Positions 2,109 through 40,995 of a stretch of 53,623 bases of DNA are shown here, in pieces. The position numbers and the translations under genes are program-made. This DNA is from a virus. Its lineage: Duplodnaviria; Heunggongvirae; Uroviricota; Caudoviricetes. The stretch lies in IMG/VR virus record IMGVR_UViG_2718217807_000001; one strand, written 5' to 3'. The first letter of the stretch is position 1. Every line of letters starts with the position of its first letter. The notes beneath the pieces were generated by a model. It saw nothing but the letters and a program-made list of their open reading frames with translations, made no database searches and was not told where the DNA came from.

Positions 2109-2333
2109 ATGACTTATGAAACAAACATCGTCGCCTTGGCTGAAAACGACTTCTTGGCCAACACCCGGAAGTTGATGGAGAACCGGGACCAGGCGTTCAC
2201 GCTTTACCAATGGGTTGTCGACAGCCTTCGCGAAGGTAAGCACTCTGAGGAAATCGGTATGCTGGTTGGGGACCTGATCAACACGAACTTCGCGCTGGAT
2301 GTCCAGTTAAAGGGGCGTCCTGACTCAAAATAG
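2109..2333 (+). CDS. Hypothetical protein, 74 aa
   Basis: ORF with AAGGA ribosome-binding site and phage-like codon usage. Confidence 0.7.
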   Translation: MTYETNIVALAENDFLANTRKLMENRDQAFTLYQWVVDSLREGKHSEEIGMLVGDLINTNFALDVQLKGRPDSK

Positions 2334-2343
2334 TAAGTAACAA

Positions 2344-2372
2344 TTTACTTATATGCTTGTCGTATGTATGAT
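2344..2372 (+). promoter_or_regulatory. Sigma70-like promoter overlapping a TAAGTAA-N4-TTACTTA palindrome
   Basis: TTTACT (2344-2349), 17-bp spacer, TATGAT (2367-2372). Palindrome at 2334-2351. Confidence 0.55.
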
Positions 2373-2377
2373 TGCGC

Positions 2378-2810
2378 GGCCACTTTCATGTGGCCAAATT
2401 TTTAGCAGCCAAGCTATCACAAAATGGCAACGACACCAGTCTCTCGGTGAGAAACGGTCGGGATTGGTGGAGCAGTAAAGAACCTTGAGTCGAGGCTCAT
2501 GGGAAGACCCAGACGGGATTTGTAGCATAGGGTCTGTATTGCCGGTGTGAACGTGGGTTGGTAGCCCACGTTGGTTGAGGGCAAAAGCTACAGGGCTGTG
2601 TGGTGGGGGGAGCGACTTAGATACCTACCGCGCAGAATAAAAGCTCAACCGTTAAATTCTAAGAGGAACCTGTACGAGTAAGCCCTTTCCAGAAGAATGA
2701 GAGTGCTTACCAGTGGGAGGGACTGCTGATACTACGCCTAACTTTTTCGATTGAGAAAACACTGATTCGGCCGAACCGTTAAACAAAATGGGCCGAAGTT
2801 TTTTTAACGG
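2378..2810 (+). ncRNA. Putative large structured non-coding RNA of unknown family
   Basis: ~430 nt with no ORF of 60 codons or more, a promoter upstream and a hairpin+T tract at the 3' end. Many stems: GGCCAC/GTGGCC, AACGTGGG/CCCACGTT, GGTTGAG/CTCAACC, TGTAGC/GCTACA, GTAAGC/GCTTAC, TTCGGCC/GGCCGAA. Confidence 0.5.
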
Positions 2811-2903
2811 AATTGTTAGGATAAGTATGGTCAGCAGCCCCTACCGAGAAACAAAAACATTCAGCGAAACAGCGAAACAGCGAAGCGAAAACGGAAAGGC
2901 AAA

Positions 2904-3467
2904 ATGGCGAAGGCACCAGCAAAACAGGAAGGCATCAAATACAACCGTAATAGTCGTGTTTCCGATGAAAACGGGGCCGCAAAATTTGACCCGTGGCTGA
3001 AAGAGGTTCTTTTGTATACAAATGGCTTCTGTATGAGAAACGGGGCCGGTGGTGCTGCGGCCATTGTTCGTTTTGGCAACCACAACAAAACTGTTCAGGA
3101 AGGTTTCAGATCCTCAACCAGCGACCGCATGGAAATACTTGCCGTTATCAGAGGGTTGGATCTTCTTAATCAGAAATGCAATGTGACGATCTACACCAGC
3201 AACCAGCAGCTAATCAACGGCATGAAGTTGTGGGTTAAAGGCTGGAAAAAGCGCGGCTGGAAGATGGCGAACGGTGAGCGTGTGAAGGATGCCGATCTCT
3301 GGCAGGAACTGGATGCTGCCGCATCTGGACACCGCATTCGTTGGAGCCGCGTCAAAAGCACCAGACATGACGTGAATAACGAGCTGTGCGACATGATGGC
3401 TAAATCCATGGCCGAATCCCCAACGATGGTCGATCGCATGTATGAGGCTATTTATTACCGCGAATAA
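2904..3467 (+). CDS. RNase HI-like protein with substituted catalytic residues
   Basis: Colinear with E. coli RnhA (RMEI, WKKRGWK, VKDADLWQELD, NELCDMMA). TDG is TNG and TDS is TSN. Confidence 0.85.
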   Translation: MAKAPAKQEGIKYNRNSRVSDENGAAKFDPWLKEVLLYTNGFCMRNGAGGAAAIVRFGNHNKTVQEGFRSSTSDRMEILAVIRGLDLLNQKCNVTIYTSNQQLINGMKLWVKGWKKRGWKMANGERVKDADLWQELDAAASGHRIRWSRVKSTRHDVNNELCDMMAKSMAESPTMVDRMYEAIYYRE

Positions 3468-3512
3468 TAAATAAGTGTTTACTTATCTTTTGCGTTATTG
3501 TATGTTTCTTTT

Positions 3513-4734: not shown

Positions 4735-5514
4735 ATGAAAGAATTAAGCATCACCACAGCAACGATGACCAGCATGGATATTGCCGAGCTGATCGGAAAT
4801 CGCCATGACAAGGTCAAGCAGTCCATCGAAAGACTTGTAAAACGCGGCGTTATAACTTCTCCCCCAATGGGGGAAAAGCCCACGGCAGGCCGCTCCGCGA
4901 CGTTTTTCGTGTTCTCCGGGGAGATGGGGAAGCGAGACAGCATTATCGTTGTAGCCCAGCTAAGTCCAGAGTTCACGGCGCGTCTGGTAGACCGCTGGCT
5001 TGAGCTTGAGAAGGCTGTAAAAGAACCGGCTCTGCCACGTACCTATAAAGAGGCGCTGATCCACCTTGTTGCTCAGGTTGAAGAAAATGAGCGGCTGACT
5101 GATGAGAATGTCGCTTTGGGTGAGGCACTCAGCGTAGCGAGTCCGAAGGCTGTTCTTATGGACCGACTGGCCGGCACTGCAGATCAGCTGTACGGCGTTA
5201 ATGAAGCTGGCCGCATCCTGGGTACTTCTGGCGCAGTAATGGCATCGTGCATGGAAATGGCAGGAGGTGTGTTCGTTAAGCGCAAATACACCACGACCCC
5301 ACGCCAGCTGTTGAAGACGTTCATTGACCGCGGCCTGGGCCGTAACGTAACCAGTGTTGTCGGTGGCCATACTCAGGCCAAATTTACGTTTAAAGGTCTG
5401 TGCTTTATCGCCCTACTCCTTATCAAGCGCGGGATTATCCGTGTCGATTCAATCTCTCATGACGTCTGTCGAGATAGCGTAAAAGAGATGACCGCAGAGA
5501 AAGCTATCGCCTGA
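4735..5514 (+). CDS. Rha-family phage regulatory / antirepressor-like protein
   Basis: MTSMDIAELIGNRHDKVKQSIERL and SIIVVAQLSPEFTARLVDRWLELE (Rha domain), then LPRTYKEAL..L and PKA.L.DRL as in antirepressor C-termini. Confidence 0.8.
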   Translation: MKELSITTATMTSMDIAELIGNRHDKVKQSIERLVKRGVITSPPMGEKPTAGRSATFFVFSGEMGKRDSIIVVAQLSPEFTARLVDRWLELEKAVKEPALPRTYKEALIHLVAQVEENERLTDENVALGEALSVASPKAVLMDRLAGTADQLYGVNEAGRILGTSGAVMASCMEMAGGVFVKRKYTTTPRQLLKTFIDRGLGRNVTSVVGGHTQAKFTFKGLCFIALLLIKRGIIRVDSISHDVCRDSVKEMTAEKAIA

Positions 5515-15633: not shown

Positions 15634-15759
15634 TCATGTGCTTAGTAGTCACAAAAATTTCTACAGCCCCTTCATCCTTTTGGGGCTTTTTTGTGCTTGT
15701 ATTGTAAGTGTTTACTTACCAGCATATGATTAGTGCCGCTCAACTACATGGAGGTAATT

Positions 15760-21685: not shown

Positions 21686-21750
21686 TTTTTAATTTCCTTC
21701 GTGCCTTATTTATGCTAATTGGGTATTCTATATAAGTAACTACTTACTAA

Positions 21751-26226: not shown

Positions 26227-27482
26227 TGGCTATGCCATCCTCCCTGAGCTTGGTTCAGTTGCATTCGGGGCAGATGAGGGTCTTCAAGTCACCGCACCGC
26301 TTCAAGGTGGTGTGCGCCGGTCGACGCTGGGGCAAGTCACGACTGTCGATTTCTAAAATCATCAAAGCGGCCGCAGCTGACCGCAAACAGCGTGTCTGGT
26401 ACATCGCACCAACGTATCAGATGGCACGACAAATTCTGTGGGATGACCTTCAGGAAGTATTGCCTCGTAAGTGGATCGCGAAGAAAAACGATACCACGAT
26501 GACAATCATCCTGAAGAACGGCAGTGAGATCGCGCTAAAAGGGGCGGATAAGCCGGATACGCTTCGTGGTGTTGCTCTGAACTTTGTCGTACTGGATGAG
26601 TTTCAGGATATGAAGCCGGACACCTGGTACAAGGTGCTTCGACCGACGCTGTCGTCTACCCGCGGTGGTGCGCTGATCATCGGTACGCCAAAGGGCTTCT
26701 CAGAGTTCCATAAGCTATTCATGATCGGCCAGAACCCAGAGATGCAAGCAAAAGGGTTGTGGAAGAGCTGGCAGTTTGTGACGGCAGATTCTCCATTCGT
26801 CCCAGATAGCGAGATCGAAGCGGCCAAAAACGACATGGACCCTAAATCGTTCGCGCAGGAGTATCTTGCTTCGTTCGAAAATATGTCCGGTCGTGTGTAT
26901 TACCCGTTTGAACGTGGTGTGCATGTAAAGCCTCTGCAATTCAATCCACGCTTACCTATCTGGGTGGGGCAGGACTTCAACATCGACCCAATGTCATCGG
27001 TGATCCTGCAGCCGCAGCCTAACGGCGAAGTTTGGGCGATTGATGAGGTTGTCCTGTTCTCTTCCAACACGTCAGAAGTGTGTGATGAGTTGGAGAGACG
27101 GTATTGGCGCCAGAAAAGCCAGGTGACAGTTTTCCCTGACCCCGCTGGTGCATACCGACAGCACGCGCGAGGTGAATCGGATGTGGACATCTTCAAGGAG
27201 AAGGGGTTTATGCGAATTGACCATCCGAAGAAGCACCCGCCGATCGCTGACCGTGTGAACGCAGTAAACCGACTGCTACTGACCGCTTCAGGCGACGTGC
27301 GCATGTACATCGACCCGAAATGTAAGCATCTGATCGATTCACTGGAGAAGGTGGTTTATAAGCCAGGTGGCCGTGACATTGATAAAACTGGAAACGTCGA
27401 GCACAGCGCCGATGCCCTGGGTTATCCAATTCATCGTCGATTCCCGGTCAAGACTCGTGTTATTCTTGGTGGATCGAGATAA
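26226..27482 (+). CDS. Terminase large subunit
   Basis: CAGRRWGKS Walker A, VVLDEF Walker B, IIGTPKG, nuclease GQDFN and HSADALGY. Confidence 0.95.
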   Translation: MAMPSSLSLVQLHSGQMRVFKSPHRFKVVCAGRRWGKSRLSISKIIKAAAADRKQRVWYIAPTYQMARQILWDDLQEVLPRKWIAKKNDTTMTIILKNGSEIALKGADKPDTLRGVALNFVVLDEFQDMKPDTWYKVLRPTLSSTRGGALIIGTPKGFSEFHKLFMIGQNPEMQAKGLWKSWQFVTADSPFVPDSEIEAAKNDMDPKSFAQEYLASFENMSGRVYYPFERGVHVKPLQFNPRLPIWVGQDFNIDPMSSVILQPQPNGEVWAIDEVVLFSSNTSEVCDELERRYWRQKSQVTVFPDPAGAYRQHARGESDVDIFKEKGFMRIDHPKKHPPIADRVNAVNRLLLTASGDVRMYIDPKCKHLIDSLEKVVYKPGGRDIDKTGNVEHSADALGYPIHRRFPVKTRVILGGSR

Positions 27483-27513
27483 GTAAGTATTTACTAACGT
27501 AAGGATATGACAA

Positions 27514-29088
27514 ATGGAATTGTCTACTAAAATGATTCAGGATCTGGTGAACCGTCGCCATCCTGATTACGAAACGCGCAAAGCGCATTGGGACTTCATC
27601 GCGGCCACTTACGCTGGTGGCCGTACATGGTTTAAAGACAACATCTTCCGCTACTTCAAAGAGGGGGATGCTGAATTTAAAGAGCGACTGGAGCGTGCTT
27701 ACCGGTTTAACCACACTCGCGAAGTAGTGAACCTCATCAACAAATACCTGTTTAAAGAGGATATTCACCGCTGCGAGGACGACGCGCCGCAATCTGTAAA
27801 AGACTTTTGGAAACGTGCAACACGCCAGAACATGAATATCGATGACTTCATGGCCGAAGTCGACCTGCAGTCATCAATTTACGGTCGTATCTGGGTTGTC
27901 GTGGATAGCACTGTATCGGGTGAAATTGAGTCGAAAGAGGATCAGAAGAAATCTGACGGCCGCGCTTACGCCTATTGGGTATCGCCACAGCAGATGCTGG
28001 ATTGCGCGTGGGATGAAGAGGGTAATCTGAGCTGGATTCTGATCTGCGAAATCGGTCGTGATGACTCTGACCCTTTCAAATCCTCCGGCAAAGAGTTCCT
28101 TCGTTACCGTTTATGGACAAAGACCGACTGGTATCTGTTCCGTGAAGAGAAAAAGGGCTCACGCGCCGGCAATCGAGCGAAGGTGATTCTGGAAGATTAC
28201 GGTTCGCATGGCCTCGGCATGGTTCCGGTATTCCCGGTCGATTGTATGGGGCAGAGTGAGTCGCAGTATTTCAGCCCGTCGCTTATTGATGACATCGCTT
28301 ACCTCGACCGTGCCGTGGCGAACTATCTGTCTAACCTCGATGCCATCATCCAGGATCAGACATTTTCCCAGCTGGCCATCCCTGTTCAGTCGCTGTTGCC
28401 TGGCGACGAGAACCACAAAAAAGTGCTGGAGTTTGGTACGAAGCGCGTCTTCACCTACGACGGCGAAAACGGAGCGCAACCATTCTACCTGTCGCCGGAC
28501 CCGAAACAGGCGAGCATGATTATTTCGACCGTTCAGCAGATCATCAATGAGATCTATCACTCTGTCGGCGTGGCTGGTGAGCGGACGAAGCAGGACAACG
28601 CTAAGGGTATCGACAACTCCAGCGGCGCGGCCAAGCTGTATGACTTCCAGCGAGTGAATAGTCTGCTTATCAACAAATCAAGCCGCCTGCAGCGAGCCGA
28701 GGAAATGCTGATGAAGCTGGTGACTGCATGGATGGGTGACAAACTGCCAGAAGATGACGAGCTGGTGGCGTACCCTGAGAGCTTCGACATTCGTGGTCTG
28801 ACTGACGAGTTCAGTGTTGCCCAGAACCTGCAATTGCTCCAGGCACCGGATTCTGTGCGTCGTTATCAGATGGAGATCCTGATTGATAAAATCTTCCCGA
28901 ACCTCCCGAAAGAGAAAATGAAGGAGATTGAGAAAGATTTATTGCAATTTCCTCCAAAAAATGAACCTATGGGGGTTGAAAGTAAGTTAGCACTTACTTA
29001 TGATAAAGGTACAGCCCGAGAAACTGGGCAAGAGAAGTCCCAAGGAACAGGGAAAACATCACCCAAGAAACCGGGTAATGACGAATAA
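27514..29088 (+). CDS. Portal protein
   Basis: 524 aa, immediately after terL. NYLSNLD, SGAAKLYDF and YPESFDI features. Confidence 0.85.
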   Translation: MELSTKMIQDLVNRRHPDYETRKAHWDFIAATYAGGRTWFKDNIFRYFKEGDAEFKERLERAYRFNHTREVVNLINKYLFKEDIHRCEDDAPQSVKDFWKRATRQNMNIDDFMAEVDLQSSIYGRIWVVVDSTVSGEIESKEDQKKSDGRAYAYWVSPQQMLDCAWDEEGNLSWILICEIGRDDSDPFKSSGKEFLRYRLWTKTDWYLFREEKKGSRAGNRAKVILEDYGSHGLGMVPVFPVDCMGQSESQYFSPSLIDDIAYLDRAVANYLSNLDAIIQDQTFSQLAIPVQSLLPGDENHKKVLEFGTKRVFTYDGENGAQPFYLSPDPKQASMIISTVQQIINEIYHSVGVAGERTKQDNAKGIDNSSGAAKLYDFQRVNSLLINKSSRLQRAEEMLMKLVTAWMGDKLPEDDELVAYPESFDIRGLTDEFSVAQNLQLLQAPDSVRRYQMEILIDKIFPNLPKEKMKEIEKDLLQFPPKNEPMGVESKLALTYDKGTARETGQEKSQGTGKTSPKKPGNDE

Positions 29089-30869: not shown

Positions 30870-30878
30870 TTAGATTAG

Positions 30879-30896
30879 TAAGTAAATGCTTACTTA
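30879..30896. promoter_or_regulatory. Palindrome TAAGTAA-N4-TTACTTA (representative copy)
   Basis: Related copies at 1285, 2334, 3471, 15704, 21733, 27480, 28980, 34529 and 40948, all just upstream of gene starts. Confidence 0.7.
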
Positions 30897-30900
30897 ATTA

Positions 30901-34439: not shown

Positions 34440-34590
34440 AAAAAGCAGGCAGTTGGCTACGGGGGTGATGGCCCCCATTTCCCTTCTAAGTTTATACCAA
34501 GCGCACTTATGATATTGCAATGCTTAAATAAGTGAGTATATACTTACTTACTGTCAAGATGACGAAACCGGTAAAAGGAGTTTACCAAGA

Positions 34591-40611: not shown

Positions 40612-40947
40612 ATGGCTAGACAAACATTCACCTGGTTCCCTGACTTCGAGTCTGAGAAAACCATAAAGCCTGAAGTTACTGTCCTGAAATTTGGCGACGA
40701 CTACGAGCAGCGCCAGTCACAGGGTTTAAACCGCATAAAAGAAGAATGGTCTCTGACCTTCCGACAGCCTTACGCGATCGGCAATGCCATTGACGATTTC
40801 TTGATGGCGCGAGGGGCGGTAGAGTCGTTCTTCTGGACAACACCCCGCAATAAAAAAATTATCTGCGTGTGTGATTCCCATACTGTTAAGCGGTATCCAG
40901 GGTACTTGGAGATCACTTGTACCCTTAGACAAGTTTTTGAGGCTTGA
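40612..40947 (+). CDS. Minor tail protein (lambda M-like distal tail)
   Basis: VTVLKFGDDYEQR...GLN and FLMARGAVESFFWTTP. Confidence 0.88.
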   Translation: MARQTFTWFPDFESEKTIKPEVTVLKFGDDYEQRQSQGLNRIKEEWSLTFRQPYAIGNAIDDFLMARGAVESFFWTTPRNKKIICVCDSHTVKRYPGYLEITCTLRQVFEA

Positions 40948-40995
40948 TAAGTAAGTGTTTACTTATTAATATAAGGTTTTGTTTCGCACTCAAGG

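Follow-up and report, generated by a model that had tools for sequence, protein, structure and literature searches.

The question raised by this locus is what occupies a 570-base interval without any long reading frame in a tailed virus of the class Caudoviricetes (IMG/VR record IMGVR_UViG_2718217807_000001), of which a stretch of 53,623 nucleotides, referred to here as the window, was analysed. The interval (2334-2903) extends between the stop codon of an open reading frame (ORF) of 74 amino acids (aa) and an RNase H-like gene, and the longest start-to-stop ORF in it counts 59 aa. An initial annotation had proposed from the letters alone that a structured non-coding RNA (ncRNA) of ~430 nt is encoded there and that, together with the adjacent, catalytically altered RNase H, it forms an RNA-protein module. 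The first of these proposals has stood up well to comparison with homologues. It can be said with high confidence that 2378-2805 on the + strand is a real, independent structured RNA gene, and a stand-alone gene for a highly folded ncRNA of ~430 nt is quite probably the best explanation of the locus overall. The second proposal is not supported, for reasons given below.

When folded as a single sequence, the + strand of 2378-2810 reaches a minimum free energy (MFE) well below that of dinucleotide shuffles (z=-3.9, with 0 of 100 shuffles as good), and the - strand folds like its shuffles (z=-0.6). A common structure of 97 pairs in 13 helices, two candidate pseudoknots included, was obtained for 21 distinct copies of the RNA from RNAalifold predictions and inspection; the 5' hairpin P0 was excluded from the pair count because of a register shift in the alignment. 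The parts of the molecule, in window coordinates, are the following.

2378-2805, + strand: candidate ncRNA, ~428 nt, supported by the fold, covariation, strand, conservation and periodicity results
2378-2395, + strand: P0, 5' hairpin GGCCAC/GUGGCC, variable in sequence and paired in all variants
2396-2425, + strand: linker, A/U-rich
2426-2543, + strand: domain I, in which P1 encloses P2, P3 and P4
2426-2430/2539-2543, + strand: P1, closing domain I, with only wobble-compatible changes
2434-2443/2460-2469, + strand: P2, with the conserved 16-nt loop UCGGUGAGAAACGGUC and a U-A to C-G double change
2483-2489/2496-2502, + strand: P3, with double changes A-U to G-C and G-C to A-U
2505-2510/2530-2535, + strand: P4, with a 19-nt loop containing UGUAGC and a C-G to U-A double change
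2544-2738, + strand: domain II, in which P5 encloses P6, P7 (holding P8), P10 and P11
2544-2549/2733-2738, + strand: P5, long-range closing helix of domain II
2550-2557/2565-2572, + strand: P6, AACGTGGG/CCCACGTT, four pairs with double changes
2573-2579/2644-2650, + strand: P7, GGTTGAG/CTCAACC
2596-2607/2624-2635, + strand: P8, with the conserved 16-nt loop GGGAGCGACUUAGAUA and four pairs with double changes
2678-2683/2705-2710 plus 2685-2689/2699-2703, + strand: P10, GTAAGC/GCTTAC
2711-2716/2723-2728, + strand: P11, local hairpin
2521-2526 with 2587-2592, + strand: candidate pseudoknot PK1, UGUAGC in the P4 loop with GCUACA inside P7
2616-2621 with 2658-2663, + strand: candidate pseudoknot PK2, CUUAGA in the P8 loop with UCUAAG
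2739-2765, + strand: tail, single-stranded and U-rich
2766-2805, + strand: intrinsic terminator, stem UUCGGCC/GGCCGAA (2766-2772/2791-2797) followed by U7 (2799-2805)

Standard pairs fill 96.4% of the 2037 pair cells. Changes on both sides of a pair occur in 14 pairs (48 cells), compared with 8.4 +/- 1.4 pairs in column shuffles, where 0 of 500 shuffles reach 14; sliding the 3' partners by 1-3 columns leaves only 0-2 pairs with double changes. These compensatory changes, which exceed both kinds of control, are located in P2, P3, P4, P6, P8 and the terminator, whose stem has one G-C pair replaced by A-U in 8 of the 21 copies, and P1, P5, P7, P10, P11 and PK1 display single wobble-compatible changes only, or none. 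P0, outside the count, exists in the variants GGGCUACC/GGUAGCCC, GGGCCACC/GGUGGCCC and GGGCUAU/AUAGCCC, with compensatory C-G to U-A changes at two positions. The structured RNA of the initial annotation is thus supported both by the fold and by the covariation in homologues on which its own verification was to depend. Its named pairings GGCCAC/GTGGCC, TGAG/CTCA (in P3), AACGTGGG/CCCACGTT, GGTTGAG/CTCAACC, GTAAGC/GCTTAC and TGTAGC/GCTACA were all recovered. The TCTC/GAGA pairing is also present, yet the P2 loop region can be read in two ways, of which this pairing is one, and the data do not separate them. A closing helix of UAGCAGC (2403-2409) with CUGCUG (2723-2728), given by the single-sequence MFE, was set aside in favour of P11, as its 5' strand is replaced without compensation in copies of the L003 type.

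The pseudoknots deserve separate attention. The TGTAGC/GCTACA pairing does cross GGTTGAG/CTCAACC, as had been noticed, and all 126 of 126 PK1 cells are paired, with two independent one-sided changes (A-U to G-U and U-A to U-G); the pseudoknot itself is plausible, but it shows zero double changes and competes with a predicted local 3-bp GGC/GCU hairpin. PK2 has perfectly complementary sides which are invariant in 21 of 21 copies, so that covariation neither supports nor refutes the pairing, and it is put forward here as something the RNA might form. The conserved loops UCGGUGAGAAACGGUC of P2 and GGGAGCGACUUAGAUA of P8, together with the A-rich junctions, would be the likeliest contact surfaces of the molecule.

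It has to be asked whether the palindromic character of the segment belongs to the RNA or to the DNA. Within the structure, G.U cells are far more numerous than A.C cells (203 vs 15), and 96.4% of the cells are paired on the + strand vs 87.1% when the structure is mirrored onto the - strand; the excess of G.U over A.C points to the + strand as the folded one and to an RNA rather than a set of DNA-level palindromes. A DNA element, namely a lytic origin, a packaging site or priming hairpins, or in a further variant a ColE1 RNA II-like primer cut by RNase H, might be suggested by the position of the locus within the replication/early gene block (exonuclease, Dam methylase, RNase H), by the G-run GGUGGGGGGAG and by the role of RNase H in the maturation of ColE1 RNA II. 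It is nevertheless scarcely credible, as the G.U/A.C asymmetry is not expected for duplex DNA or symmetric cruciforms, the - strand folds no better than shuffles, and iterons, an AT-rich unwinding tract or DnaA-box-like repeats are not seen in 2378-2805. A primer of the ColE1 kind must moreover run into the origin, whereas a strong and conserved terminator is found here; the only promoter-like site on the - strand (2551-2524, 9/12 consensus) is within chance expectation, and the RNA persists in loci devoid of RNase H.

Hidden protein coding is likewise not indicated. Variable sites in the RNA region are distributed over the codon phases as 44/41/57 (p=0.22), which is no three-base periodicity, and the same count on the adjoining 74-aa ORF gives a strong 14/14/53 (p=7e-9). 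In most copies the - strand opposite the 5' half of the RNA (2377-2650) has two overlapping stop-free frames of 80-92 codons; they are interrupted in L069 and L003, have no codon periodicity and were rejected as a by-product of the G-rich + strand.

The transcription unit and its surroundings complete the description of the locus.

2109-2333, + strand: 74-aa ORF, phrog_5343, function not known, predicted three-helix bundle
2334-2351, no strand: palindrome of 18 bp, TAAGTAA-CAAT-TTACTTA, immediately 3' of the 74-aa ORF stop and overlapping the -35 hexamer
2344-2372, + strand: sigma-70-like promoter TTTACT-17-TATGAT from a consensus scan, predicted start ~2378-2380
2904-3467, + strand: RNase H-like gene (rnh), Pfam RNase_H, E=4e-27, a frequent but dispensable downstream neighbour
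2334-2351, 3470-3486, ~1272-1291, ~15700-15719, ~21725-21745, ~27470-27486, ~28985-29001, ~30876-30897, ~34535-34551 and ~40945-40966, intergenic: copies of the palindrome

The ORF-free segment with its TTTACT-17-TATGAT promoter and its 3' hairpin followed by T7 is present exactly as first described, and the promoter-like site is conserved: every copy retains both hexamers 17 nt apart, and it is the sequence between them that varies. By consensus matches and by the pattern of conservation, the RNA therefore appears to possess a promoter and a terminator of its own, as a stand-alone ncRNA gene would. The RNA core (2426-2738, ~310 nt) has a mean pairwise identity of 92.4%, vs 84.3% for the 74-aa ORF and 86.3% for rnh, and between the K. 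oxytoca and K. pneumoniae types it is 87.5-90% identical, with flanking genes at 74-78%.

The palindrome at 2334-2351 is a candidate operator or promoter element. About ten palindromes of this type are situated in intergenic regions of the window, and the 14-nt core (at most 1 mismatch) gives 5 matches vs 0.03 expected. The type can be written (A)GTAAGTA-N3-6-T(T)ACTTA(T), and its copies usually follow a stop codon directly and lie at or across a promoter-like -35. The repeated palindrome is probably the operator/promoter element of a regulator encoded by the phage-plasmid, and it may also serve as an AU-rich hairpin at gene ends.

Searches for known relatives of the RNA gave a uniformly negative picture, in agreement with the initial statement that the sequence matches no remembered family. 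In Rfam 15 there was no match in the whole window at the gathering threshold and none at E <= 10 in 2200-3000 under permissive filters, a null result that covers GOLLD, ROOL, OLE, raiA, HEARO, 6S, RNase P RNA, tmRNA, group I/II introns, CsrB and riboswitches. ARAGORN reported neither tRNA nor tmRNA, and blastn against a phage collection found no match. With 11-nt words, blastn retrieved 30 complete, non-mobilizable Klebsiella plasmids of ~110 kb at 84-100% identity, carried by K. oxytoca, K. michiganensis, K. pneumoniae and K. quasipneumoniae. Further copies came from IMG/VR, ENA, Logan and metagenome contigs by means of pattern scans, protein look-ups and motif scans; the motif scans of genome and metagenome contigs yielded eight more copies, the other matches being protein-coding chance, for example a Ruminococcus P-loop gene. 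The nearest record carries one copy of the RNA. A 22-base motif had no copy outside the lineage in 185,579 species-representative genomes and a metagenome collection, an exact motif being incapable of reaching distant relatives. Three pattern scans of viral contigs returned only this RNA or the counterpart described below, plus chance matches, and a synteny search with the 74-aa protein in species-representative genomes returned nothing. Judged by these sequence searches, the family looks narrow, restricted to one Klebsiella lineage of SSU5-like phage-plasmids, and it will be called here the Klebsiella-type RNA. No paper describing it was found in the literature searched; a preprint on phage-plasmid heteroresistance was considered and discarded, since it deals with another family.

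The only constant neighbour gene of the RNA is the 74-aa ORF, which lies upstream of it in 25 of 25 loci. The AlphaFold model of its product is a three-helix bundle (pLDDT 80), and a Foldseek comparison of the model with the PDB gave no match and hence no functional lead. Constant adjacency makes this protein a candidate for a functional link with the RNA.

The same ORF leads to a second element. Its homologues, of 50-57% identity, occur in 727 plasmids of Klebsiella, Escherichia, Enterobacter, Salmonella, Citrobacter, Cronobacter and others, and also in SSU5, Cyrano and related phages; in 688 of the 727 plasmids, what comes after the ORF is another, dissimilar ORF-poor element, ~450-500 nt long. 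This SSU5-type element, defined by SSU5 (L033:3235-3800; 78.7-79.2 kb in SSU5), has the palindrome GGTAAGTACTTACC at the same relative place, a promoter-like site, a covarying 5' hairpin and a near-invariant core, better conserved than what surrounds it; its + strand fold stands at z=-4.85 vs shuffles, it has no Rfam match, and its 3' end has tandem repeats and lacks a canonical terminator. In that 3' part a 25-nt unit CTCACTTCGTTCGAGGTGAACTTCA is found, of which Cronobacter sakazakii pFS2 (L061:~1640-1700) has one tandem copy more than the other genera. No paper describing the SSU5-type element as an RNA was found. The 135-nt 'CDS' CYRAN_81 of Cyrano lies within it, and in stationary-phase LF82 lysogens CYRAN_81 is transcribed 12-fold above the prophage median (PMC9928086, where Table 1 lists genes at >=5-fold). 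In the same table the highest value of the element, 723-fold above the prophage median, belongs to CYRAN_43, which is listed as a 'hypothetical protein', lies two genes away from the putative repressor and might be a further RNA that has gone unrecognised or else a small gene with high expression.

The Klebsiella-type and SSU5-type RNAs take the same position in the same gene layout, preceded by the phrog_5343 ORF and followed by a variable slot. By blastn with 11-nt words there is no similarity between them (30 vs 688 different records), an nhmmer profile of the Klebsiella-type RNA found only noise at E <= 10 on the SSU5-type loci, and a covariance model of Klebsiella-type domain I, the single domain modelled, had no significant match inside the SSU5-type element. 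The order of helices also differs when the consensus folds are compared by eye. A shared short motif (GGGGG..AGCG loop, AAAAGCUCA) was rejected as a sign of homology and treated as coincidence owing to its different topological context, and GCUCA is the 3' strand of P7 in the Klebsiella-type RNA, but the 5' strand of a helix in the SSU5-type one. The two RNA types correspond to each other in position, with no homology detected between them.

Some observations at the margin of this comparison should be mentioned. Pectobacterium carotovorum plasmid Drgb1 (L038) has a 74-aa ORF of 31% identity followed by a terminator and two inverted genes; ~1 kb downstream, a 630-nt AT-rich intergenic region (L038:4270-4900) has z=-5.8 (20 shuffles), and it might be a third RNA type or merely long inverted repeats. 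In E. coli SSU5-type loci, the structured spacer of ~140 nt after rnh (L035:4428-4572, L064:3948-4062) gives a CsrB/RsmB match of 21 bits (E=0.028, far below gathering) and matches to the domain-I model at E about 1, both of which are probably noise.

What follows the RNA is much less constant than what precedes it, and this bears on the proposed RNA-protein module. Among 25 loci with the Klebsiella-type RNA, the downstream gene is RNase H in 16, and an unrelated 148-aa gene on the opposite strand in 8; in the remaining locus RNase H is reduced to a remnant of 26 codons, followed by another gene. Every one of the 25 has an intact RNA, and 9 of them are without an intact RNase H gene. A second version of the last ~70 nt of the RNA gene co-occurs with the replacement 148-aa gene, which locates a recombination joint within the 3'-terminal part of the RNA gene. 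The 148-aa gene itself (phrog_2320, with no Pfam or PADLOC match; L003:3587-4033 on the - strand, and also L010, L012, L013, L017, L021, L022 and L027) encodes a protein that has stayed 100% identical in backbones which have otherwise diverged, a pattern suggestive of recent horizontal spread. After the SSU5-type RNA the slot is filled by RNase H (SSU5, E. coli, Cronobacter), by JukA/JukB (a K. pneumoniae plasmid), by betT (Enterobacter) or by other genes, so that the 3' flank of the RNA appears as a hotspot of cargo exchange. In detail, the anti-phage defence genes JukA (E=1e-65) and JukB (E=3e-12) occupy the RNase H slot of K. pneumoniae pZ0117KP0018-2 (L034:3994-5606), and betT is found in the slot of Enterobacter and Citrobacter plasmids (L036, L037).

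A dedicated module, in which an inactive RNase H-like protein would bind the RNA or an RNA:DNA hybrid formed by it, could be argued from the adjacency of the two genes in the window and in 16 of the 25 loci, and from the window protein, which has N and S in place of the conserved Asp residues of TDGSC and TDSQY (YTNGFC and YTSNQQ in the alignment). K. pneumoniae homologues beside the same RNA (e.g. L002:3657-4157) retain the canonical YTDGSC and YTDSQY, however, and the loss of the two Asp is confined to a K. oxytoca/michiganensis sub-lineage (the window, L004, L005, L069). Since the RNA is kept without RNase H in 9 loci and stands beside canonical motifs in others, such a module is left unsupported, and the linkage with the RNase H-like gene expected across relatives is not constant. 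Behind the SSU5-type RNA, which is unrelated, RNase H is found as well, and there too other genes can take its place. We consider this idea very unlikely.

The reading of the locus as a stand-alone RNA gene has also to be weighed against several observations that speak against it. The copies are closely related (91% mean column identity), so that most helices have seen few independent events, and 52 of the 97 pairs never vary; related sequences can exceed column shuffles without any structure, which is why the slid controls carry weight. The only expression reported in lysogens is that of the SSU5-type counterpart, with which no homology is detectable, and no result indicates a binding partner of the RNA. 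Finally, the promoter scan between the terminator (2806) and the start of rnh (2904) gave no promoter-like site, for which reason co-transcription of rnh by read-through is possible, and this may leave room for a leader role of the RNA. The RNA would then be a cis-acting 5' leader of the downstream gene, with the terminator as a regulated attenuator (of the riboswitch, protein-dependent or processive-antitermination type) setting the level of RNase H. A promoter, a long structured leader, a terminator with a U-run and then a gene make up the classical attenuator layout, and RNase H is the commonest downstream gene for both RNA types. Against this, the downstream gene is on the opposite strand in 8 of 25 loci, where control by read-through is excluded, and it is a different gene in one more, the RNA being intact in all of them. 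The slot of the SSU5 family is filled by unrelated cargo such as JukAB and betT, the RNA core is more conserved than the gene it is supposed to regulate, and 430 nt with at least 12 helices is far above the size of known attenuators, with no match to a riboswitch or leader family. A leader function is accordingly held to be unlikely.

If the locus is a stand-alone RNA gene, the RNA would be transcribed from its own promoter to its own terminator and would act in trans as a folded molecule: a scaffold, a decoy, the RNA part of a ribonucleoprotein, or perhaps a self-assembling structure like the large 'ornate' RNAs. Long antisense pairing would not be its way of action. Several features speak for a structural mode rather than regulation by base pairing: the length of the molecule, its two closed domains, its candidate pseudoknots, long loops that do not vary, and antisense searches in which no target stood out. 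A protein-binding or self-assembling structural RNA acting in trans is tentatively preferred, at somewhat less than an even chance. In the search for antisense targets, which covered the 53-kb window of the ~111-kb element, exact complementarity of at least 11 nt was as frequent as chance, and a duplex-energy scan of ten conserved loops against both window strands gave no outlier at a gene start. A single 12-nt match to the upstream ORF (2235-2246) was rejected as a target because it is not conserved in the K. pneumoniae type. A CsrA sponge was also discarded: GGA motifs are not above the expectation from base composition (informal count), and the RNA has no Rfam CsrB match.

The same searches bear on another possibility, that the RNA is the precursor of a small antisense immunity RNA of the P1/P7 c4 or P4 CI type, whose loops would target the downstream Rha/antirepressor-like operon and keep the lytic programme off. 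Such an operon does exist: ~700 nt downstream it starts with the same palindrome (3470-3486) and includes a Rha-family gene (4735-5514). Two non-alignable RNA versions at one locus recall the heteroimmune alleles of P1/P7. The counterpart RNA is furthermore expressed in lysogens (PMC9928086). On the other side, there is no conserved complementarity to the downstream leader or start regions, where 11-12-nt matches are at chance level and short seeds of 7-8 nt fall below the resolution of the searches; the whole 310-nt core is conserved and not a single short seed, and the RNA ends at its own terminator, not within the leader of the target operon. An immunity RNA is thus quite improbable. Each of the rival readings has at least one tested feature against it.

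As to the beneficiary of the structural RNA preferred here, it would serve the phage-plasmid itself, either in the maintenance of the plasmid state or in the early lytic programme, because it lies in the replication/early block behind a palindrome common to other operons of the element. The RNA would be the lineage-specific counterpart of the structured RNA of the SSU5/pHCM2 type, which is transcribed in lysogens. A bolder suggestion, to which only a small chance is given, is that SSU5-like phage-plasmids keep a conserved 'large RNA slot' behind the 74-aa ORF, filled in different lineages by RNAs that have lost any resemblance or never had one, either as a determinant of lineage specificity (e.g. 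immunity, incompatibility or superinfection exclusion between phage-plasmids sharing a host) or as a ROOL/GOLLD-like RNA-only assembly needed for the plasmid-prophage lifestyle. The Klebsiella-type RNA would in that case represent a second, independent solution to the same task.

SSU5-like phage-plasmids, ~110 kb in size, are common in clinical Klebsiella, E. coli, Salmonella and Enterobacter, and resistance genes and defence systems can be among their cargo. The RNA is the best conserved among the compared parts of the locus (74-aa ORF, promoter, RNA, spacer and rnh), yet it is unannotated and there are at least two non-alignable versions of it; annotation pipelines leave the region blank or place spurious short coding sequences in it. 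The conservation of an RNA without annotation suggests an overlooked RNA-based function central to these phage-plasmids. What is added here is the covariation and strand test, the facultative nature of the RNase H link, the existence of positional counterparts without detectable homology, and the cargo hotspot after the RNA. A new family in genetically tractable hosts would thereby be proposed for the short list of large 'ornate' bacterial and phage RNAs.

Comparison with known systems places the Klebsiella-type RNA as follows. With 6S RNA (ssrS) and ygfA it shares a stable structured RNA gene followed by a protein gene possibly expressed by read-through, and a decoy mode is conceivable for it as well; 6S RNA is, however, ~185 nt long and a single long interrupted helix mimicking an open promoter, whereas the RNA described here has 430 nt, is multi-branched and gives no 6S match. 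To ColE1 RNA II it is similar in length, being likewise highly structured and plasmid-borne; it contains a G-run, and an RNase H gene lies nearby. The Klebsiella-type RNA differs in having an intrinsic terminator, no predicted 5' antisense promoter of the RNA I kind, independence from RNase H and no Rfam match. The c4 RNA of P1/P7 and the CI RNA of P4 are likewise ncRNAs of plasmid-prophages, located upstream of an antirepressor-type operon and existing in lineage-specific versions, but they are processed to 70-80 nt and have target repeats in the same transcript, in contrast to an RNA of 430 nt with its own terminator for which target repeats were not found. A further likeness is to GOLLD, ROOL, OLE and raiA, of which GOLLD and ROOL are phage- or prophage-borne: these too are orphan ncRNAs of more than 400 nt, multi-domain, rich in pseudoknots (here candidates), highly conserved and carried by mobile elements. 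The differences lie in the absence of a family match at E <= 10, in another host range (phage-plasmids of Enterobacteriaceae) and in a very narrow distribution. As far as sequence comparison can tell, the Klebsiella-type RNA would therefore join the large orphan 'ornate' RNAs by kind, as a member of no such family described so far.

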